Of a stretch of 64,000 nt of DNA, positions 2,744 to 57,456 are shown one piece after another (the first letter of the stretch is position 1; each line of letters opens with the position of its first letter). This DNA is from a candidate division TM6 bacterium GW2011_GWF2_30_66 (lineage in GTDB: Bacteria; Babelota; Babeliae; Babelales; Vermiphilaceae). Where the stretch lies: the NCBI GenBank assembly GCA_000989195.1, contig LBOA01000001.1, positions 5,312 to 69,311 of the forward strand, in the 5' to 3' direction. The notes beneath the pieces are model-generated. The model was given only the letters and a program-made list of their open reading frames with translations. It was not told where the DNA came from and ran no database searches. Position numbers and translations under genes: made by a program.

Positions 2744-3082
2744 ATGAACTATAAAAATATATGCGCTAGATTACTTGTTTTATCTTTATGTGCAATAATT
2801 ACAAGCAATTCTTTTGCCAAAAAAAGAGAAAAAAAAGAATGGTCAAGAGGTAAAAAAGTTGCTGTAGGAGCTATTGTTGGTGGCGCTCTTACTTGTGGCG
2901 TTGGTGCTGCTATCGGTGCTGCTGCAGGATCTGCAGGAACTGGCGCAGCCATCGGTGCAGGAACTGGCGTAGTTGGCGGAACAGTAGTTGGTGCTAGTGT
3001 AAAATGCTGCAAATGTAAACATTGTCATCACAGACGCTGTAAATGCAGCAACCAAGAAGCTAAAGAAATAGAAACTAAATAA
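2744..3082 (+). CDS. Small secreted glycine-zipper protein with a Cys/His/Lys-rich tail
   Basis: GGGAGA RBS then ATG at 2744. Signal peptide MNYKNICARLLVLSLCAIITSNSFA. Gly-zipper segment GAIVGGALTCGVGAAIGAAAGSAGTGAAIGAGTGVVGG (Rick_17kDa_Anti-like). Tail CCKCKHCHHRRCKC. Confidence 0.7.
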   Translation: MNYKNICARLLVLSLCAIITSNSFAKKREKKEWSRGKKVAVGAIVGGALTCGVGAAIGAAAGSAGTGAAIGAGTGVVGGTVVGASVKCCKCKHCHHRRCKCSNQEAKEIETK

Positions 3083-3090
3083 AAAACATA

Positions 3091-3151
3091 AAAATTTTTA
3101 ACGAGCTAAGCTTGTAAAATAATTTTACAAGCTTAGCTCGTTAAAAATTTT
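3091..3151. terminator. Long near-perfect palindrome (about 30-bp arms), probable strong hairpin terminator
   Basis: AAAATTTTTAACGAGCTAAGCTTGTAAAAT is followed by its reverse complement, flanked by A and T runs. Confidence 0.6.
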
Positions 3152-3247: not shown

Positions 3248-3868
3248 ATGAACGTAAAAAAATATTTTATAACAAAAGCCGCAATAATAGCAATAATAGT
3301 TCTCACATCACAAATTAATACTGTTTTTGCCAGAGATGGAGGTGGCCGTCGAGCACTTGGTGGGCTTGTCGGTGGAACTGCCGCAGGAGCTCTTGTAGGT
3401 GGTGCCATTGGAGGTGGTAGAGGTGCCGGTATAGGCGCTGGAGTTGGCGCTGCAGTTGGACTAACAGCCGGAGCTGCCGCTGCATCATCAAAACATGATG
3501 AAGATAGATATTACGAAGAAAGAAGACGAACACAAGCACGCCCTGCAACAGTAAAGACTGTGTATGTTGAAAGTAAAACAACTCAAAAAGATAGACCCGC
3601 AACAGCATGTGAAAAGCTAGCTCAAGATTTGGCAAATACACAAGCAGAGCTTGAAAATCTTGCAAATGAAAATGATTCACTGTCAAGTGACAATAATGCT
3701 CTTTCAATAGAAAATAGCAGCCTTGCTAAAGAAAATAAAAAACTCGAATCTTATCTTAGCGATTATGAATCAAAAGTAGAAAACCTTGAACAAGAGCTTA
3801 AAAAAACAAATAAAGAGCTAAAAGTTGCCAATAAAAAAATAAATAAATTAAGTAAAAAAAATAAATAA
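3248..3868 (+). CDS. Secreted glycine-zipper protein with a C-terminal coiled coil
   Basis: GGGGA RBS; signal/anchor segment; GGLVGGTAAGALVGGAIGGGRGAGIGAGVGAAVGLTAGAAAA; heptad-like LENLANENDSLSSDNNALSIENSSLAKENKKLESYL... Confidence 0.7.
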   Translation: MNVKKYFITKAAIIAIIVLTSQINTVFARDGGGRRALGGLVGGTAAGALVGGAIGGGRGAGIGAGVGAAVGLTAGAAAASSKHDEDRYYEERRRTQARPATVKTVYVESKTTQKDRPATACEKLAQDLANTQAELENLANENDSLSSDNNALSIENSSLAKENKKLESYLSDYESKVENLEQELKKTNKELKVANKKINKLSKKNK

Positions 3869-7288: not shown

Positions 7289-8614
7289 TTAAAAACGTCC
7301 ATGCTTCTTAAGAAGTTTAGCATATTGCTGACTTTGTTCAAATCTCTGTAATAAAATATTTACATCTTCTACATTTACGCCAGCACCTTTTGCTATTCTT
7401 TGCTTCCTAGAACCATCCAAAATCTTAGGGAAATAACGCTCTTTTTTTGTCATAGAAGCTATTATTGCCTTAAATCTTTTAACCTCTACCTCACCTTTTT
7501 GCAACATTTCTGGAGAAATCTTTGCCCCAGCCATACCAGGAATATATTTCATTATATTAGAAAACGAACCCAGCCTGCCTACCATTTCTATCTGATTAGC
7601 AAAATCCTGCAAATTCATTTTACCCCCAGAAAAGACTCCAAACAAAGACTCTTGCTCGGCTTGATTAAACTTTTCTTCGGCCTTCTCAACTAAAGATAAA
7701 ATGTCTCCCATTCCCAATATTCTATCAGCAACCCTCTTAGGCCTAAAGACTTCCAAATCTTCTATTTTTTCGCCAGAGCCCACGAACGATATTGGTTTTT
7801 TTAAAAAATATCTAAACGCAAAAGCTGCACCGCCACGAGTATCACTATCAATTTTTGTTAATATGGCAGAATTAAATGGAATTACTTTATCAAATGATGT
7901 CGCAACACTTATAGATTCTTGACCAGTCATTGAATCAAGAACCAATATTTTACATTTTGGCTTTATATTATTATCTATTTGCTTTAATTGATCAAGCATA
8001 TCACTATCTATATGCAATCTTCCTGCCGTATCTAAAAACACAATTTCAAATCTATTATTTTTAGCATAATTATTAATTTCTTTAGCAGCTATTACAGGAT
8101 CTACACACTCTTTTGCTCTATAAAAATCTACGCCAACCTGTTTTGATAAAATTTCAAGCTGATCAATAGCCGCTGGCCTGTAAAAATCTACTGATGCTAA
8201 CAAAATTTTTCTATCTTTTCCTCTTTTTTTTGCCTGCTTTAAAATGAACAATGCAAGCTTTGCAGTTGTCGTCGTCTTTCCAGAACCCTGTAACCCCATA
8301 ACCATTACAGTTGACGGTATCTGTAATGAAAATTCATTCTCAGAAGCTTCTGCACCCAAGAAATGCAACAACCTATCATGAACAATTTTTACAAACTGCT
8401 CAGATGGCTTTATTGACTTAATAACCTTTTTGCCTATTAAATCAGTTTTTATGCTTTCTACAAATTCTTCAACTAGCTTATATGGCACGTCAGCTTCTAG
8501 TAAAGCATCTTTTACCTTTAAGATCGCTTCTTGCAAATTATCTTCTGAAAGATAGCCTTTTCCAGTCAATCTTGAAAATATAGATGAAAATTTTTCAGAT
8601 AAAAAATCAAACAT
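7289..8614 (-). CDS. ffh: Signal recognition particle protein Ffh
   Basis: GLQGSGKTTTTAKLA, DTAGRL and TKIDSDTRGGAA GTPase motifs plus a Met-rich M domain. Confidence 0.95.
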   Translation of the reverse strand: MFDFLSEKFSSIFSRLTGKGYLSEDNLQEAILKVKDALLEADVPYKLVEEFVESIKTDLIGKKVIKSIKPSEQFVKIVHDRLLHFLGAEASENEFSLQIPSTVMVMGLQGSGKTTTTAKLALFILKQAKKRGKDRKILLASVDFYRPAAIDQLEILSKQVGVDFYRAKECVDPVIAAKEINNYAKNNRFEIVFLDTAGRLHIDSDMLDQLKQIDNNIKPKCKILVLDSMTGQESISVATSFDKVIPFNSAILTKIDSDTRGGAAFAFRYFLKKPISFVGSGEKIEDLEVFRPKRVADRILGMGDILSLVEKAEEKFNQAEQESLFGVFSGGKMNLQDFANQIEMVGRLGSFSNIMKYIPGMAGAKISPEMLQKGEVEVKRFKAIIASMTKKERYFPKILDGSRKQRIAKGAGVNVEDVNILLQRFEQSQQYAKLLKKHGRF

Positions 8615-8884
8615 TATTATTAGCCTTTATAATCAGATATAAACAAAAACAAAGTTCAAATTTAACAAAACTCAAAAAAAAGTACAAGTAAAAGTCTAAT
8701 ACAAAAAGACCATTCTCATACTAATAATAACCAAAAACATTAAGTTTTGCCAGAAAAAACGCCCAAAAGAAATAATTCTTACTAATTATCTTTATAAATT
8801 ATATTATAAACACGAAAAAAATCAATTATTTTTGACAAATAAAAATATCGAACTAAGTTAAATTTATTAACCAAAGCAAGCATC

Positions 8885-8912
8885 TTGACAAATAGAAAAC
8901 TCCATGTATAAT
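8885..8912 (+). promoter_or_regulatory. Candidate sigma70-type promoter (TTGACA-16 nt-TATAAT) upstream of hflX
   Basis: Exact TTGACA at 8885-8890 and TATAAT at 8907-8912. In AT-rich DNA such matches can arise by chance. Confidence 0.3.
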
Positions 8913-9064
8913 TATCGTTATACTATGTTATTTAAAAACTGATACAGAAAAATACTTACAATAATCAATCAAAAAATAAATTTAAAAATTTGTATAAAAA
9001 TTTAAAAACAGTATAAATTGATAAAAATATAAAATTATTAAAAACAATATAGAGGTAATAAAAA

Positions 9065-10426
9065 ATGAAACATTCAAAAGCGCCCGTATCAACAAGCATA
9101 ATGCCTAAAACACTACTAATAGGCGTAGAAGCTCCTTATAATAAAATAAGAAACTTCGAATCTTATTATGAAGAATTTGAAAATTTAGCAAGATCAAATA
9201 ATATAACAGAATATGATATAGTAACTGTAAAACTAAGAGAAATAAACCCATCGTATTTTGTTGGAACTGGAAAACTAGACGAAATAAAAGACTATTGCGT
9301 AAATAATAAAATAAAACAAGTTATTATTTCTGAAACTCTTTCTGCTCAACAACAGAGAAATTTAAGCGATTATATTTATTGCAATGTTTTTGACAGAACA
9401 CAATTAATTTTAGATATTTTTGAAAAAAATGCTCATTCTGCAGAAGGAAAAATTCAAGTAGAAATAGCCATGTTGAGACATAAAAAAACTCGTCTAGCAG
9501 GAAAAGGCATAGACATGTCACAACAAACTGGCATCTCTGGAGCAATTGCTGGATCTGGCGAAACTGCTAAAGAAAAAGAAACACGAGTTCTAGATGAAAA
9601 AATAACCACTCTAAGACGAAAATTGGTTCATTTAGAGAAAATACGCGACACTCAAAGAAAAACTAGATTTAAAAATAATGTTCCACACATTTGTTTAATT
9701 GGCTATACAAATACAGGAAAATCAACACTGTTAAATATATTAACAAAAAGTCACGTGCTTGCAGAAGATAAATTATTTGCAACTCTAGATACAGCAACAA
9801 AAGAATTATATGTAGATGGCGAAAAAAAAGGAATAATATCTGACTCCGTAGGTTTTATCCAAAATCTTCCGCACAACTTAATAGAAGCCTTTAAATCAAC
9901 CTTAGAAGAATTACAATATGCAGACCTTCTTTTGCAAGTTGTAGACATATCAGATCCAAACTGGGAATTCCATATAAAAGTCGTAAAAGAAATATTGGAT
10001 GAACTAGAAGTAAAAAAGGACATGCTTTATGTTTTTAATAAAATAGATAAAATCTCTGGTAAAAAATCTAGCAGTAAAAGCGAAACTTGCGATAATACTT
10101 GCGCAGAGTGTGAATGTGACATAGAAGACTGCATTTGCGAACAAGAATTCTGGGAAAAAGAATGTACAGAGAGTGAATGCGAAAATGAATGTGATGAAGC
10201 GACCGCAGAACAATACGACAATAAACAAGAGCGTGACCAAGACTTAGACAAAACACCAGAAATTTCTGTCAAAAAAGACAAAAACCCAACGTTTACATTC
10301 GAACAAACATTAGAGCAAATAAAAAAATACGAACCAAACGTTATAATATCTGCAAAATCAAAAACCGGAATAAAGCCACTTTTAGATTATTTAAAAGCTT
10401 GGAAAAAAAAAGAATTAATAAAATAA
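9065..10426 (+). CDS. hflX: GTPase HflX with a Cys/Glu-rich insertion between G4 and G5
   Basis: HflX N-domain, then GYTNTGKSTLLN (G1), DSVGF (G3), FNKIDK (G4) and ISAKSKTG (G5). AGAGG RBS. Confidence 0.9.
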   Translation: MKHSKAPVSTSIMPKTLLIGVEAPYNKIRNFESYYEEFENLARSNNITEYDIVTVKLREINPSYFVGTGKLDEIKDYCVNNKIKQVIISETLSAQQQRNLSDYIYCNVFDRTQLILDIFEKNAHSAEGKIQVEIAMLRHKKTRLAGKGIDMSQQTGISGAIAGSGETAKEKETRVLDEKITTLRRKLVHLEKIRDTQRKTRFKNNVPHICLIGYTNTGKSTLLNILTKSHVLAEDKLFATLDTATKELYVDGEKKGIISDSVGFIQNLPHNLIEAFKSTLEELQYADLLLQVVDISDPNWEFHIKVVKEILDELEVKKDMLYVFNKIDKISGKKSSSKSETCDNTCAECECDIEDCICEQEFWEKECTESECENECDEATAEQYDNKQERDQDLDKTPEISVKKDKNPTFTFEQTLEQIKKYEPNVIISAKSKTGIKPLLDYLKAWKKKELIK

Positions 10427-10441
10427 AAAAACTAAAAATAT

Positions 10442-10475
10442 GTTAAAGCTATTTACATAAAAAAATAGCTTTAAC
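10442..10475 (+). terminator. 13-bp perfect hairpin after hflX (no T-run)
   Basis: GTTAAAGCTATTT / AAATAGCTTTAAC; lacks a downstream U-tract, so terminator function is uncertain. Confidence 0.3.
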
Positions 10476-10554
10476 AGCTAAACACAATTATTTGTAATAT
10501 TTTAAAAAATATAACTAATAAATAATTTGTAGATTGAAAAATCAGGAGACAAGC

Positions 10555-10998
10555 ATGAATAAAAAAATATTAACTATATCTTTAATTCTAACTTTAAACA
10601 CTAGCAATTTTATTAAATCAATGGAAATAATTACACCCAAAAGCAATCCATTATTGTTTAAAGAGTATCTAAAACTTGAACTTAATAAAAAATCAACAAT
10701 AAACACCTATACCTATAACAACAAAAATGAAATTCAAGCAACGCTTTTACAAATAATAAATATTATGTGTAATCCAGAAAGAGAAAAAGACTTAAAAATA
10801 ATATTAGACCCAGAATTAATAAGAAAAATTGTAGAAGCTAACGACAAAGAAAATGCTGATTTATATGAATTAATTATTCAAGAACACAAAAAAAGGAAAA
10901 ACAAGAAAAAAAGATTAGTCGCAAAAGAAAGCGATATAGAAATATTAAGTGTAGAAGAAATTCTTGAAGATTTAAACAATAAAATTAAAAATAATTAA
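10555..10998 (+). CDS. Secreted K/E-rich hypothetical protein
   Basis: AGGAGA RBS then ATG at 10555; signal peptide MNKKILTISLILTLNTSNFIKS; no known motif. Confidence 0.6.
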   Translation: MNKKILTISLILTLNTSNFIKSMEIITPKSNPLLFKEYLKLELNKKSTINTYTYNNKNEIQATLLQIINIMCNPEREKDLKIILDPELIRKIVEANDKENADLYELIIQEHKKRKNKKKRLVAKESDIEILSVEEILEDLNNKIKNN

Positions 10999-11145
10999 AA
11001 ATTAAATATGCCCAAAAAAATCTATATAAATTACTAGTGCAAATAATACAATCATAGAAAAAACATATAATATATTTACTATTCTAAAAAATTCAGATAA
11101 AAATAATAAATATATTAAACACTTTTTTACAAGGGAGAATAGTCT

Positions 11146-11793
11146 ATGAAATATACAAACAAACTTATTACACTGACAATGCTTTGCTCAGTATTTACAC
11201 AAACATCTTTTACTTGCGATAGATGCGAAGAACTAAAAGCTACTTACAAAAGCACAATCACAGATGAGCTTACTAAGTCCAGCGAAATAGTAAGTTGCTC
11301 ATGCTCACACCCAAAACCTGCAGCAAAGCCACCAGTAAAAGTTGAAGAAACTGTTGATTGCTCTTGCTCAAGACCACCAAGACCCCCAAAACCTGCAACA
11401 AAATCCGGCGAAATAGTAAGTTGCTCATGCTCACACCCAAAACCTGCAGCAAAACCACCAGTAAAAGCTGAAGAAACTGTTGATTGTTCTTGTTCAAAAC
11501 CACCAAAACCTACAAGACCTACTACAAAATCTGAAGAAGTTTGCCCATATGCAGAAGTTGAAGAAGTAATTACACAATTATCAGAAAAAATTATTTCTCT
11601 AAAAAAAATATTAGAATCTGCTCAAGCCGGAGAACAAGAAATAGTTGCAATGATAACTAAAGATTTAGATACAATAGCAGACACGCTAGAAGATATATCA
11701 AATAGCGAACTAACCCCAGAACAAGCAATGGAAGAACTTATCAAAATTAAAAAAATTATAGATGAGATAGAATATTATATAAATGCAAAATAA
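11146..11793 (+). CDS. Secreted CSCS/proline-repeat protein with an acidic helical C-terminus
   Basis: Signal peptide MKYTNKLITLTMLCSVFTQTSFT; four E-x-V-x-CSCS-x-P-(K/P)-P modules; GGGAGA RBS. Confidence 0.7.
   Translation: MKYTNKLITLTMLCSVFTQTSFTCDRCEELKATYKSTITDELTKSSEIVSCSCSHPKPAAKPPVKVEETVDCSCSRPPRPPKPATKSGEIVSCSCSHPKPAAKPPVKAEETVDCSCSKPPKPTRPTTKSEEVCPYAEVEEVITQLSEKIISLKKILESAQAGEQEIVAMITKDLDTIADTLEDISNSELTPEQAMEELIKIKKIIDEIEYYINAK
11278..11529 (+). repeat. Tandem 126-bp coding repeat x2 inside the CSCS protein gene
   Basis: 11278-11403 and 11404-11529 are near-identical. Each encodes SxEIVSCSCSHPKPAAKPPVKxEETVDCSCS(R/K)PP(R/K)P. Confidence 0.9.
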
Positions 11794-20392: not shown

Positions 20393-21862
20393 ATGACAGA
20401 AAAAAAATTATCTGGCCTAAAAATATTTGGTACAGATGGCATAAGAGCGAGATTCGGCGAATTCCCATTGGATAATGAAAGTATAATAAAATTGGGGCTG
20501 GCAATAGGCCAATGGGCACAAGAAAAATACGTAACCAATAATAACCAAACGCTAAATATACTAATTGGACACGATACAAGAATCTCATGCGATAGCATAA
20601 AACAAGGTCTTGCCGCAGGCCTGCTAACTCACAATGCAATTATACGCGATGCACAAGTAATACCAACGCCTGCAATAGTAAAATTTATAAATAATAAATG
20701 TGACTATTTTAATTTTGGAATAATAATTACGGCTTCGCACAACCCATACCAAGATAATGGCATAAAGATAGTAGATTCCAAAATAGGCAAACTAGACAAA
20801 AGCGACGAAGATAAAATCACAGAGTTTTTTTATAGCAACACCATTAACTCTAGATACTTGAAACTAAAAGATAGCATTAAAAATTCTGGCAATACGCAAC
20901 AAGAGCATGATACCAAATGCAAATGTTCATGTGAAAATATATCCCCCATTCGCCCTGAGTTAATCAAAGGGCCTAATGACCAATATAAAATCCTGGAAAC
21001 TCTACAAGAAGAATATGTAAAAACAATTACACGTTACTTCAAAAAAGACTTACTAAAAAATATAAAAATAGCACTAGATTGTGCAAATGGAGCTACTTAT
21101 AAAGTCGCACCAGAAATTTTCAAACAACTTGGTGCAGAAATTCTTTTAATATCTCATACTCCAGATGGAAAAAACATAAATCAAGATTGCGGCTCAACAC
21201 ATCCAGAAAATTTACAAAAATTCATGCTAAATAATAGTTGTGATATTGGCTTTGCTTTTGACGGCGATGGCGACAGAATAGCCGCGATTAGTAAAAATGG
21301 CCAAACAAAAGACGGTGACGACATATTATGCATACTTTCACAGCACCCTGAATATAAAAAACAAACTGCTATTGTCGGCACAATAATGAGTAATTATGGC
21401 CTTGAAATTTATTTAAATAAATATAATAAAGAATTAATACGTGCAAATGTTGGCGATAAAAACGTTTGTAAAGAAATGGTAAATAAAAATTTACTTGTAG
21501 GTGGCGAGCCTTCTGGACACATTGTACTAAGAGATTATCTATCTTGTGGCGATGGCATATTTGCAGCACTAAAAATAATTGAATCAATAAAACATGCAGA
21601 TAACTGGGATCTAAATACTTTTGAACGCACCCCTCAAATAACAATTAATATAAAAGTAAAAGAAAAAAAAGATCTAAACGAACCAAAATTTAAAGAAATA
21701 ATATTAAAATATAAAAATAAACTAAATAATGGTAGATTAATTGTCAGATATTCTGGAACTGAAAATTTATTAAGAATTATGACAGAAAGTAACGATGAAA
21801 ATTTAGCACGAGATATTTGCAATAATTTATCTAAAGAACTCGCACAAGAATTAAACAATTAA
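20393..21862 (+). CDS. glmM: Phosphoglucosamine mutase with a ~40-aa insertion
   Basis: FGTDGIRA, TASHNPYQDNGIK (active Ser loop), FDGDGDR, GEPSGH and RYSGTENLLRIM. Confidence 0.95.
   Translation: MTEKKLSGLKIFGTDGIRARFGEFPLDNESIIKLGLAIGQWAQEKYVTNNNQTLNILIGHDTRISCDSIKQGLAAGLLTHNAIIRDAQVIPTPAIVKFINNKCDYFNFGIIITASHNPYQDNGIKIVDSKIGKLDKSDEDKITEFFYSNTINSRYLKLKDSIKNSGNTQQEHDTKCKCSCENISPIRPELIKGPNDQYKILETLQEEYVKTITRYFKKDLLKNIKIALDCANGATYKVAPEIFKQLGAEILLISHTPDGKNINQDCGSTHPENLQKFMLNNSCDIGFAFDGDGDRIAAISKNGQTKDGDDILCILSQHPEYKKQTAIVGTIMSNYGLEIYLNKYNKELIRANVGDKNVCKEMVNKNLLVGGEPSGHIVLRDYLSCGDGIFAALKIIESIKHADNWDLNTFERTPQITINIKVKEKKDLNEPKFKEIILKYKNKLNNGRLIVRYSGTENLLRIMTESNDENLARDICNNLSKELAQELNN
20945..20973 (+). 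repeat. Palindromic-element terminus copy inside the glmM reading frame
   Basis: CCCATTCGCCCTGAGTTAATCAAAGGGCC matches the 29-nt consensus at 26/29 positions. It is translated as PIRPELIKG. Confidence 0.7.
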
Positions 21863-26751: not shown

Positions 26752-27199
26752 CCCGTTCGCCCTGAGTTAAGCGAAGGGTCTAGAGACTTTGTCCCTAATT
26801 TTCGATTTATTTTTTTCATTAGACAATTCTTTCAACAAATCAATCTCATCATTAATCAAAGCTTCTTTCTTTTTTCTAGACCAACCCTTAATTTGCTGCT
26901 CTGCTTCTATAGCCTCACCTCTTGATCCAACTGTATCGCTAAAAACAACTTCAACAGGACGCCTTTTGTACGTATAACATGTTCTGATTAATCCCTGCTT
27001 GTGAGCACTAATCCTAGCTTAGATATTATCAGTGTAACCAGTATAATAAGAGCCGTCACTGCATCTTAAAATATAAACATAAAAATCAAGCATGCTAACT
27101 TGTACTTCCACGATAAAAATTATTTTCAAAATTTTACAAATACAAGCTAAATATTCTTGCAAAATCTCTGGACCCTTCGCTTAACTCAGGGCGAACGGG
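26752..27199 (-). mobile_element. 448-bp cassette: GIY-YIG gene bounded by perfect 29-bp terminal inverted repeats
   Basis: 26752-26780 CCCGTTCGCCCTGAGTTAAGCGAAGGGTC and 27171-27199 GACCCTTCGCTTAACTCAGGGCGAACGGG are exact reverse complements. Confidence 0.7.
26767..27093 (-). pseudogene. GIY-YIG (YhbQ/UPF0213, URI-domain) nuclease gene with one in-frame TAA
   Basis: MLDFYVYILRCSDGSYYTGYTDNI*ARISAHKQG...RRPVEVVFSDTVGSRGEAIEAEQQIKGWSRKKKEALIN...SRPFA*. The TAA at 27019-27021 sits where family members usually have Glu. The terminal stop lies inside the left inverted repeat. Confidence 0.8.
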
Positions 27200-42616: not shown

Positions 42617-42706
42617 ATAACTCTTCTTCAAAAAAAATTAATTAATAAAACAACTATCTTATATCTGAAATGTGCGCAATTTTGAGCCTGCTACCAGATC
42701 TGAACC

Positions 42707-42745
42707 GTCCTTCGTCAAGCTCGGGATGCTCGTAATCCTTCAACA
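42707..42745 (-). repeat. Diverged palindromic-element half-site about 30 nt downstream of tRNA-Thr(GGT)
   Basis: GTCCTTCGTCAAGCTCGGGATGCTCGTAATCCTTCAAC is nearly identical to the module at 43188-43225 and 43261-43298. It is related to the right arm at 55764-55792. Confidence 0.6.
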
Positions 42746-42776: not shown

Positions 42777-42852
42777 TGGAGCCCGCGACCGGATTTGAAC
42801 CGGTGACCTCTTCCTTACCAAGGAAGTGCTCTGCCAACTGAGCTACGTGGGC
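42777..42852 (-). tRNA. tRNA-Thr (anticodon GGT), CCA encoded
   Basis: Anticodon stem-loop CTTCC-TTGGTAA-GGAAG, T-arm ACCGGTTCAAATCCGGT; one A:C mismatch in the acceptor stem. Confidence 0.88.
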
Positions 42853-43152: not shown

Positions 43153-43334
43153 CTTCGCATATCATCCAAATAAACAAATATGGAGCTGTCCTTCGTCAAG
43201 CTCAGGATGCTCGGAATACCTTCAACTTCGCATATCATTCAAATAAACAAATATGGAGCTGTCCTTCGTCAAGCTCAGGATGCTCGGAATACCTTCAACT
43301 TCGCATATCATTCAAATAAACAAATATGGAGCTG
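43153..43334 (-). repeat. 73-bp tandem repeat, about 2.5 units, abutting and overlapping the 3' end of tRNA-Thr(TGT)
   Basis: Units 43153-43225 and 43226-43298 differ at one base. The partial third unit 43299-43334 runs into the tRNA. Each unit contains TGGAGCTG (the tRNA 3' end including CCA) plus an element half-site. Confidence 0.9.
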
Positions 43335-43402
43335 GCGATCGGACTTGAACCGATGACCTGCTGATTACAAATCAGCTGCTCTACCAACTGAGCTACGCCA
43401 GC
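43327..43402 (-). tRNA. tRNA-Thr (anticodon TGT), CCA encoded
   Basis: Acceptor GCTGGCG/CGCCAGC, anticodon loop TTTGTAA, T-arm ATCGGTTCAAGTCCGAT. Confidence 0.9.
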
Positions 43403-51829: not shown

Positions 51830-51858
51830 CCCGTTCGCCCTGAGTTAATCGAAGGGTC
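51830..51858 (+). repeat. Solo copy of the 29-nt element terminus
   Basis: CCCGTTCGCCCTGAGTTAATCGAAGGGTC matches the terminus at 26752-26780 at 28/29 positions. No inverted partner lies within the 250-bp intergenic region. Confidence 0.7.
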
Positions 51859-55642: not shown

Positions 55643-55792
55643 TACCCGTTCGCCCTGAGCCTAACGAAGGGTTGTAAATCATACCAAACTTTGATAAAAA
55701 TTTGTGCATGTCTTTGTAAAAAAATTAAATACTTAGCAAAAAAATGTTTGGCAGGAAAACATATCCTTCGACAAGCTCAGGACGAACGGGTA
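55643..55792. mobile_element. 150-bp ORF-less inverted-repeat element (MITE-like) between tdk and radA
   Basis: Left arm TACCCGTTCGCCCTGAGCCTAACGAAGGG, right arm TCCTTCGACAAGCTCAGGACGAACGGGTA. The outer 10 nt pair perfectly, the inner parts are diverged, and the core is AT-rich. Confidence 0.6.
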
Positions 55793-57298: not shown

Positions 57299-57456
57299 CC
57301 CGTTCTACCTGAGTTAATCGAAGGGTCGCGAGATTAACATTTTTTCGCAACAATATTTTCGTAGAAAAAAACTTTAAAAAATTTATTTTTTTATTAAAAC
57401 AAAAATAAATTTTAAATAAAGTCTCAGAACCCTTCGCTTAACTCAGGGCGAACGGG
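57299..57456 (+). mobile_element. 158-bp ORF-less deletion derivative of the GIY-YIG cassette, between radA and the CPBP gene
   Basis: Arms are CCCGTTCTACCTGAGTTAATCGAAGGGTC and ACCCTTCGCTTAACTCAGGGCGAACGGG. The internal ends match both ends of 26752-27199, including a remnant of the last codons, KVSEPFA*. Confidence 0.65.

Follow-up and report, generated by a model that had tools for sequence, protein, structure and literature searches.

Can one unit of a dispersed repeat settle inside an essential gene and still be read as part of the protein? This question is raised by glmM, a gene for phosphoglucosamine mutase (20393-21862, + strand) in a 64,000-nucleotide stretch of DNA from the candidate division TM6 bacterium GW2011_GWF2_30_66 (phylum Dependentiae), which was analysed at its full length and which we call the window. 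The gene, identified by Pfam, PDB, an AlphaFold2 (AF2) model and synteny, is an intact open reading frame (ORF) of 489 amino acids (aa). At 20945-20973 (+) it reads CCCATTCGCCCTGAGTTAATCAAAGGGCC, a stretch that the original prediction took for the terminus of a mobile element translated in frame, comparable with the palindromic elements of Rickettsia (RPEs). We give a probability of about 0.85 to the reading that a solo unit of a dispersed repeat family was inserted in frame into the linker between domains 1 and 2 of GlmM in an ancestor, that it would be co-translated and is decaying, and that units of this kind would have been spread by a GIY-YIG nuclease.

A repeat unit in the glmM reading frame

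Terminal units of the family in the window follow the pattern CCCGTTCGCCCTGAGTTAA[G/T]CGAAGGGTC, with the consensus CCCGTTCGCCCTGAGTTAAKCGAAGGGTC and the start CCGTTCG. The copy nearest to the glmM unit is a solo terminal unit in an intergenic stretch at 51830-51858 (+), recovered by both profile and mismatch searches and identical to it at 26 of 29 positions; this is the same match as the one first reported for 20945-20973. With up to three mismatches allowed, it is the single further site that the window yields; 100 shuffles preserving dinucleotide composition yield none. An nhmmer profile built from seven other termini in the window (26752+, 27199-, 51830+, 55645+, 55790-, 57456- and 57299+), with the glmM copy excluded, matches 20944-20972 (+) with an expectation value (E) of 1.3e-6 and 24 bits in the 64 kb searched. 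The original prediction had been made to depend beforehand on a formal significance test of the nucleotide match, and the match persists under this one. Base composition also differs, with G or C at 15 of the 29 positions against about 31% G+C for the window. The glmM 29-mer is a genuine member of the window's dispersed repeat family.

In the glmM frame the unit gives S184 P I R P E L I K G P194 N195, and its core, PIRPELIKGP, covers aa 185-194; the reading SPIRPELIKGP proposed earlier is found exactly, from S184 to P194. By profile match we delimit the repeat-derived in-frame segment as 20942-20977 (+), around the core at 20945-20973 and with ends accurate to about 6 nucleotides (nt) either way; it reads SPIRPELIKGPN, aa 184-195. 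Two of the three + strand frames of the unit are blocked by TAA or TGA, leaving PVRPELxEG as the sole open frame, and the - strand has two open frames (PSxNSGRT and LRLTQGER). Judged from its sequence, the glmM unit should be translated and form part of a functional GlmM.

All four Pfam domains of the enzyme (PGM_PMM_I to IV) were found in the ORF. Its top PDB matches are phosphoglucosamine mutases (2e-69), its closest named homologues are GlmMs of Candidatus Dependentiae/Babeliales, and the gene order glmM, DUF502 gene, permease is common to the window and the orthologues. In an alignment of 67 sequences the catalytic Ser-His (S115/H116), the DGDGDR metal loop (D290/D292/D294/R295), the GEPSGH sugar loop (E372/G375/H376) and the RYSGTE phosphate loop (R452/S454/G455/T456) are invariant columns. 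The uninterrupted frame, the four domains and the invariant residues bear out the earlier claim that the frame stays open and the catalytic motifs are intact.

The unit is placed between Pfam domain I (ending at residue 147) and domain II (starting at residue 206). An AF2 model based on the same 67-sequence alignment has a mean predicted local distance difference test score (pLDDT) of 92.4 and a predicted template modelling score of 0.91, and it superposes on Staphylococcus aureus GlmM (6gyz_A) with a template modelling score of 0.90, normalised to the target. The sole internal stretch of low confidence runs from about residue 161 to 200, where consecutive 10-residue blocks have pLDDT values of 73, 48, 53 and 76 and residues 175-183 fall below 50. 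Since the linker has low pLDDT in an otherwise confident model, the unit is predicted to lie in a flexible loop between domains 1 and 2 of an otherwise canonical GlmM, which is where the original prediction had expected a structure to put it.

Extent, age and decay of the insertion

How much of the linker comes from the repeat? The distance from the SHNP to the DCANG motif is 114 residues in the window GlmM, against a mode of 77-80 among its 120 nearest homologues, of which only the proteins P0005 (120) and P0048 (109) are comparable. Aligned with Bacillus subtilis GlmM, residues 141-217 of the query pair with residues 126-168 of the target, a surplus of about 34 residues. On the 5' side of the unit, 37 residues (aa 148-184) can be aligned to the P0005 linker as far as ...KCENI; the local score, 56, is reached in none of 2000 composition-preserving shuffles, and the P0005 linker goes on past ENI without the unit. 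On the 3' side, the sequence from about 20978 aligns to native GlmM in contigs L001 and L002, which carry the orthologues P0002 (79% aa identity) and P0003 (71%). Neither the profile nor blastn of the flanks detected a second arm or an element body around the glmM copy, and against all element copies both flanks gave AT-rich words of 7-21 nt only (E of at least 0.06). Only about 12 codons, of some 35 extra linker residues, are thus repeat-derived. The remainder (20834-20941, +) has no detectable repeat origin and, by its homology to P0005, is best taken as an older, lineage-specific expansion of the domain 1-2 linker. Of the original proposal of a linker about 40 aa longer that holds an element, the greater length stands (about 34-35 residues) and the repeat origin of the whole segment does not. 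An 8-mer in the older stretch, ATTAACTC at 20843-20850 (TINSR versus SINSGR), might be seen as what is left of an inverted unit, a reading that we reject: its neighbouring bases mismatch, it has no profile match and the stretch is common to P0005.

The shortness of the segment also bears on what kind of object it is. A complete palindromic element of the RPE kind measures about 100-150 bp, and a single unit of 29-36 nt is all that can be detected in glmM. The family as a whole has the make-up of a MITE (miniature inverted-repeat transposable element), that is, inverted termini around a short non-coding body in several copies, and the solo glmM copy does not. The alternative that survives best, improbable as we consider it, is that the segment is the last remnant of a complete MITE of 120-160 bp inserted in frame, so that the whole 35-aa excess would be element-derived. 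Two-armed copies of 146 and 158 bp do exist in the window, the linker excess (about 105-110 nt) is of similar size, and L001 shows that deletions happen in the glmM linker. The unit, however, has the orientation of a left arm, which puts the element body downstream, yet L001 and L002 have native GlmM there; for this reason we take the glmM copy to be a solo unit. Moreover, the upstream 37 residues are homologous to a P0005 linker that lacks the unit, the blastn search of the flanks against all element bodies gave nothing better than E = 0.06, and solo units are common elsewhere (at 51830, beside tRNA genes and in a methionyl-tRNA synthetase (MetRS) gene on contig L134).

The age of the insertion can be read from the orthologues. 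In P0002 on L001, where a DUF502 gene also lies downstream, the same site carries CATTCGCAATGAGTTAACCGAAGAATC in the same frame (IRNEL...), to which the profile gives a weak match (E = 0.05). The window and L001 copies have in common a G-to-A change at unit position 2, and the L001 copy retains CGAAG and the final TC, both absent from the window copy. This combination of a common change and differing retained positions points to independent decays of one ancestral unit. The L001 copy differs from the consensus at six positions, five of them changes from G or C to A; its stem is gone (-0.8 kcal/mol; the window copy has -8.2), and half of the amino acids that it encodes are changed. No unit was found at the site in L002 (P0003), in L003 (P0005) or in 16 other aligned Dependentiae GlmMs. 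Were the segment ancestral, the same peptide would be expected at this place in lineages that lack the element; a regular-expression scan of the 120 nearest homologues finds it only in the window's own protein and, decayed, in P0002.

Length variation of other kinds was seen in the same alignments. In the Dependentiae GlmM P0005 (L003, 10001-11623) the linker is expanded by 45 aa and another 40 aa are inserted ahead of the RYSGTE loop; at that pre-RYSGTE site P0003 shows a short duplication of the LNSG type, and P0048 has 30 aa inserted in its linker. The repeat profile has no match to these lineage-specific inserts.

Persistence across a speciation event might suggest that the unit was co-opted, either as a peptide with a role in GlmM (e.g. 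a partner-binding loop) or as an intragenic DNA or RNA hairpin site (for instance one that a nuclease targets, that is a hot spot of recombination or at which transcription pauses). The window copy does retain a small GCCCU/AGGGC stem (-8.2 kcal/mol, z = -2.2), and the NTS repeats of Neisseria modulate transformation and are clustered around important genes (PMC11893778). We hold co-option to be very unlikely, given that the L001 copy has lost both the stem and half of the residues, as expected of neutral decay, that AF2 gives no confident structure for the segment, and that most GlmMs work without the unit. The lost stem and changed residues of L001 instead support selective neutrality, and the glmM copy is probably neutral. 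Chance or convergent resemblance of a native GlmM linker to the repeat is barely credible: a short match in a hypervariable, low-complexity linker does speak for it, yet that match has E = 1.3e-6 with the copy itself excluded, no shuffle reproduces it, the 29-mer is G+C-rich (15/29) amid about 30% G+C, the unit stands in frame in other genes of related contigs, and it is absent from all listed GlmMs but the nearest orthologue.

The repeat family, its nuclease gene and its other sites

The full-form element of the window spans 448 bp (26752-27199). Its unit at 26752-26780 and inverted unit at 27171-27199 are 95% complementary and are placed around a GIY-YIG pseudogene (27093 down to 26767, - strand; Pfam GIY-YIG, 9.7e-17) with one in-frame TAG, at codon 25. 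Two intergenic, non-autonomous MITE-like copies, of 146 bp (55645-55790) and 158 bp (57299-57456), have inverted units at both ends. A divergent unit (GTCCTTCGTCAAGCTCGGGATGCTCG...) at 42702-42736 (-) adjoins a tRNA gene; two further divergent copies lie near a tRNA gene (43183-43217 and 43256-43290). These units were picked up as two direct-repeat families and give weak profile matches (E = 0.007 to 0.17). In this region, 43153-43371 consists of three tandem 73-nt repeats, the third of which enters the 3' end of the tRNA gene at 43330-43402 (-). Each of the first two is made of a duplicate tRNA 3' end (TGGAGCTG) and then a divergent unit (TCCTTCGTCAAGCTCAGGATGCTCGGAAT), and a unit similar to the latter adjoins the tRNA gene at 42780-42852. 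The tRNA-side copies look like the result of repeated insertion at tRNA 3' ends with target duplication.

Ten of the 11 units in the window are intergenic, in the approximately 16% of its sequence that is non-coding (about 84% is coding), and no other long ORF of the window carries the signature peptides. Together, the intergenic bias and the lack of signatures in other long ORFs are what one would expect if insertions into genes are as a rule removed and the only ones to last are those in frame and in tolerant loops. The search of predicted proteins that had been suggested earlier accordingly adds no long ORF within the window and succeeds on related contigs, where other proteins carry the signatures. 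Among the copies whose flanks were read, there is no consistent direct repeat, and the inverted repeat seems to reach (C)TT(A/C)CCCG. Rfam at its gathering threshold returned nothing on the repeats. Under relaxed settings the two MITE-like copies matched nothing but plant and animal microRNA-precursor models, far below the cut-offs; such matches reflect long hairpins in general, and these candidates were rejected.

The arrangement of unit, small GIY-YIG gene and inverted unit is found with intact genes (103-138 aa) on three Dependentiae-like contigs: L137 (2947-3366), L139 (2927-3485 and 3738-4296, in tandem and identical) and L141 (175-733). A further full-form copy of about 452 bp lies in a metagenome-assembled genome of Proteobacteria (L113, 3684-4135), where the gene is known from a tblastn match only (60% aa identity). 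The GIY-YIG protein has 2553 homologues at E < 1e-10. In about 50 of the best 120 of these the unit is translated at the C-terminus (...PVRPELVEG...HPSTSSGRT, LRQAQGER, FDRLRTNG), so that the unit abuts the GIY-YIG gene in many genomes. Its closest solved relatives are the UPF0213 proteins 1zg2 and 1ywl (PDB); Pfam gives GIY-YIG only, and NCBIfam has no family for it.

We scanned one genome per species (596 Gb, both strands) for GTTCGCCCTGAG-N5-CGAAGGG. The pattern is present in at least 120 contigs (L005-L124), against a chance expectation of about 4-10 matches for its 19 fixed bases, and the matches listed come from Burkholderiales, Sphingomonadales, Dehalococcoidia, Methylococcales, cyanobacteria, Nitrospirota, Anaeromyxobacter, Sulfuricurvum and others. 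This GC-rich unit mostly occurs in two-armed elements of 60-90 bp, built as CCGTTCGCCCTGAGC[C/T]TGTCGAAGGG, a spacer and GCTTCGACA[A/G]GCTCAGCCCGAACGG. A GIY-YIG gene lies in the 8 kb examined at only one of the approximately 120 listed loci, which means that most units are far from the nuclease gene, as expected for dispersed repeats. Literature searches with nucleotide and peptide strings of the unit found no papers.

A metagenome scan for the lineage-specific unit gave ten AT-rich contigs. When these and L001-L003 (about 100 kb in all) were scanned with the profile, 17 unit copies were found at E < 1e-4, all of them in the ten AT-rich contigs and five inside long ORFs. On L134 (53-2101, - strand) a MetRS of 683 aa, with tRNA-synt_1g in one stretch (residues 13-389), carries the unit as HPSINSGRTG (aa 147-156) within its catalytic domain, and the linker before its tRNA_bind domain has a second unit (TPVRPEFIEG) and a loop-expanded inverted unit. 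PDB alignment does not cleanly delimit the insert, as a homologue has a segment of similar length there, and the evidence for this case is the exact match over 26 nt together with the unbroken ORF. A partial MetRS on L129 (251-2131, -) has DPSINSGRTG followed by 6.2 tandem derivatives of 54 nt (705-1037), which begin GTTCGCCCT and are all in frame in the linker before the tRNA_bind domain.

The other cases are a SufBD-type ORF and another GlmM. On L132 a stop-to-stop ORF (8596-9579, -) with a SufBD core in its C-terminal part encloses the whole of a two-armed copy of 319 bp, whose units are at 9192-9223 and 9478-9510; the Pfam SufBD match starts at profile position 61, and the element may have replaced or split the N-terminus of this ORF, whose start codon is uncertain. 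In the GlmM P0117 of another Dependentiae lineage (L135, gene 10001-11383), the unit at 11338-11365 is translated as the last 15 residues, ...ETLRQAQGERIQRRT, followed by the stop codon. It is wedged between glmM and the DUF502 gene, where the glmM stop overlaps the DUF502 ATG. The in-frame unit thus recurs in several genes (MetRS, the SufBD-core ORF and another GlmM), and the glmM copy of the window is no one-off. Related contigs also hold a two-armed MITE-like copy (L125, 6036-6190) and a variant of the unit with an AT-rich loop insertion of about 20-25 nt (CCCGCTCACCCTGAGTGATTTTTTCTTAAAAATTGTATCGAAGGGTT), seen on L135 (8893-8940, 18568-18615 and 20403-20449) and on L134 (about 430-480).

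Known systems and a proposed history

In-frame insertion of small palindromic repeats is established for RPEs and has been noted for ERIC, BOX, QMITE1 (Coxiella) and Anabaena MITEs (PMC10969869). RPE-1 inserts, described by Ogata et al. 2000 and 2002 (via PMC10969869 and PMC3733652), comprise the whole element (about 100-150 bp) and code for 30-50 aa. At the smaller end, single intragenic units of repetitive extragenic palindromes (REPs), of 8-10 aa, are known in pyruvate dehydrogenase E1/E2 and tRNA synthetases of Sphingopyxis alaskensis, and Di Nocera et al. 2013 argued that intragenic REPs are neutral inserts in flexible linkers or loops (PMC3733652). In the same paper RPE-4 and RPE-6 are identified as CGTC-tagged REPs and dRS3 as CGTC-1, and CGTC REPs are described as lacking a dedicated transposase.

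The unit shares much with RPEs. It is a dispersed palindromic repeat, in frame in housekeeping genes of an obligate intracellular or host-dependent bacterium whose genome is small and AT-rich; the reading frame survives, the site tolerates insertion without harm to the fold, and several unrelated genes, including tRNA-related enzymes, are affected. Unlike RPE inserts, it is a solo unit of about 30-36 nt (about 12 aa) and its host belongs to the phylum Dependentiae. As far as compared, its sequence differs from RPEs, and it does not have the CGTC tag of RPE-4 and RPE-6. The original idea of an RPE phenomenon with an unrelated family holds for the in-frame event in an intact gene and, as far as compared, for unrelatedness at the sequence level; the insert is a solo unit and not a whole element, and the architecture is that of the published Ssn/NTS system. 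The likeness to RPEs could reflect a shared element class, since the literature ties the NTS/dRS3 class to RPE-4 and RPE-6 (PMC3733652).

The closest match in size and context is with intragenic GTAG/CGTC REPs, which likewise occur as single stem-loop units in known genes (PMC3733652). In contrast to these, our unit ends without a GTAG or CGTC tag and starts with CCGTTCG, and the table of intragenic REPs in that paper (CGTC-1: VIPAKAGI or VAPAQAGA) does not include the unit peptides RPEL, LSLSK, LRQAQ and FDKLR. REP/RAYT REPtrons and REPINs (PMC2817692, PMC3116915) also consist of hairpin singlets and inverted doublets, are mostly extragenic and stand in inverted orientation around one nuclease or transposase gene that is present in a single copy. 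Our repeats enclose a gene for a GIY-YIG nuclease and not for an HUH Y1 (IS200/IS605-like) transposase, and the GTAG tag is missing. ERIC, BOX, QMITE1 and Anabaena MITEs are similar in being small non-autonomous repeats that are occasionally translated in host ORFs (PMC10969869); they differ in belonging to other sequence families, in having DDE-type or unknown mobilising enzymes and in usually inserting as whole elements. The in-frame event is of a known kind (RPEs and intragenic REPs), seen here in a new bacterial group and with a different repeat family.

The nuclease side of the comparison leads to the Ssn system. According to Chenal et al. 2025 (PMC11893778), NTS/dRS3-type repeats (SRM) flank ssnA, which encodes a 94-aa single-domain GIY-YIG protein (cd10448); proteins of the SsnA type cut single-stranded DNA site-specifically next to the repeat, and the pairing of Ssn and repeat is found in many phyla, is enriched in symbionts and is remarked to have an architecture like that of insertion sequences. 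The likeness lies in a small single-domain GIY-YIG gene flanked on both sides by a dispersed hairpin repeat, again in many phyla. As for differences, a regular-expression search for the SRM motif, HGTCWYN(0-2)YYVSBRHN(0-5)WNVSBRGN(0-2)RNCYNB, found no match in the window (both strands) or in representative AT-rich and GC-rich units, and the accessible part of that report does not describe in-frame genic copies. By analogy the element would work like the Ssn/SRM system, and we do not file it as a member. The unit occurs in many phyla and still lies outside the published SRM motif, so there may be more to the Ssn repertoire than is known at present.

From these comparisons we propose the following history. 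A single terminal unit (about 30-36 nt) of a hairpin-ended dispersed family would have entered the flexible domain 1-2 linker of glmM in an ancestor that this Dependentiae lineage has in common with the closest relative sampled. The insertion could survive because it landed in the unit's one open + strand frame (PVRPELxEG), because it added a whole number of codons and because the linker was already tolerant of large changes in length. The unit would now be co-translated as about 12 extra surface residues of a functional GlmM, and would be decaying by mutation, mostly from G/C to A/T, with no function of its own that we could detect. Recognition and spread of such units are likely to be the work of the single-domain GIY-YIG nuclease (about 94-105 aa), by analogy with Ssn/NTS, and the spread probably proceeds via single-stranded DNA.

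Several points weigh against this history. Individual units form only modest hairpins (-3.5 to -9.5 kcal/mol, z from +0.9 to -2.2), and we therefore refrain from describing the glmM copy as a structured element of RNA or DNA. As the GIY-YIG gene of the window is a pseudogene, the family may no longer be mobile in this genome. The unmatched SRM motif, along with UPF0213 proteins as the best solved relatives, means that the Ssn mechanism is transferred by analogy only. The orthologues offer no clean empty site, and the linker is too diverged to give exact insertion boundaries or a target-site duplication. Finally, no independent assembly with the exact allele was found, P0001 being the window's own protein.

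With this case, in-frame 'selfish DNA in genes' reaches from Rickettsia, where it is best known, to Dependentiae, a second, unrelated host-dependent lineage with small AT-rich genomes, and recurs there in essential enzymes. The phenomenon is also physically tied to a small GIY-YIG gene bracketed by the same repeat; CGTC-type repeats had no known enzyme in 2013 (PMC3733652), and one was proposed only in 2025 (PMC11893778). There is a practical use in annotation as well: the peptides PVRPELxEG, PSxNSGRT, LRQAQGER and FDKLRxNG inflate or extend ORF predictions and can be flagged. A wider suggestion, which we offer as speculative and would ourselves bet against, is that a second, hitherto undescribed branch of Ssn-like GIY-YIG nucleases, acting on single-stranded DNA, recognises the unit as its site. 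In that case CCGTTCGCCCTGAG-N5-CGAAGGG repeats would have spread across many phyla and repeatedly colonised the linkers of Dependentiae's essential enzymes (GlmM, MetRS and possibly SufBD), even expanding in tandem. GIY-YIG-driven repeats would then quite generally supply host-dependent bacteria with new protein segments, with RPE-type insertions as one case.

Two further repeats were seen elsewhere in the window. At 3091-3151, in the gap between + strand ORFs ending at 3082 and starting at 3248, lies a perfect 61-nt palindrome (30-nt arms, 100% complementary, around a 1-nt centre), which may be a terminator-like hairpin. A 215-aa Cys/Pro-rich protein encoded at 11146-11793 (+) contains two tandem repeats of 42 aa (SCSCSHPKPAAKPPVK.EETVDCSCS...), and the corresponding DNA repeat at 11272-11523 has a period of 126 nt with 89% identity between the copies.

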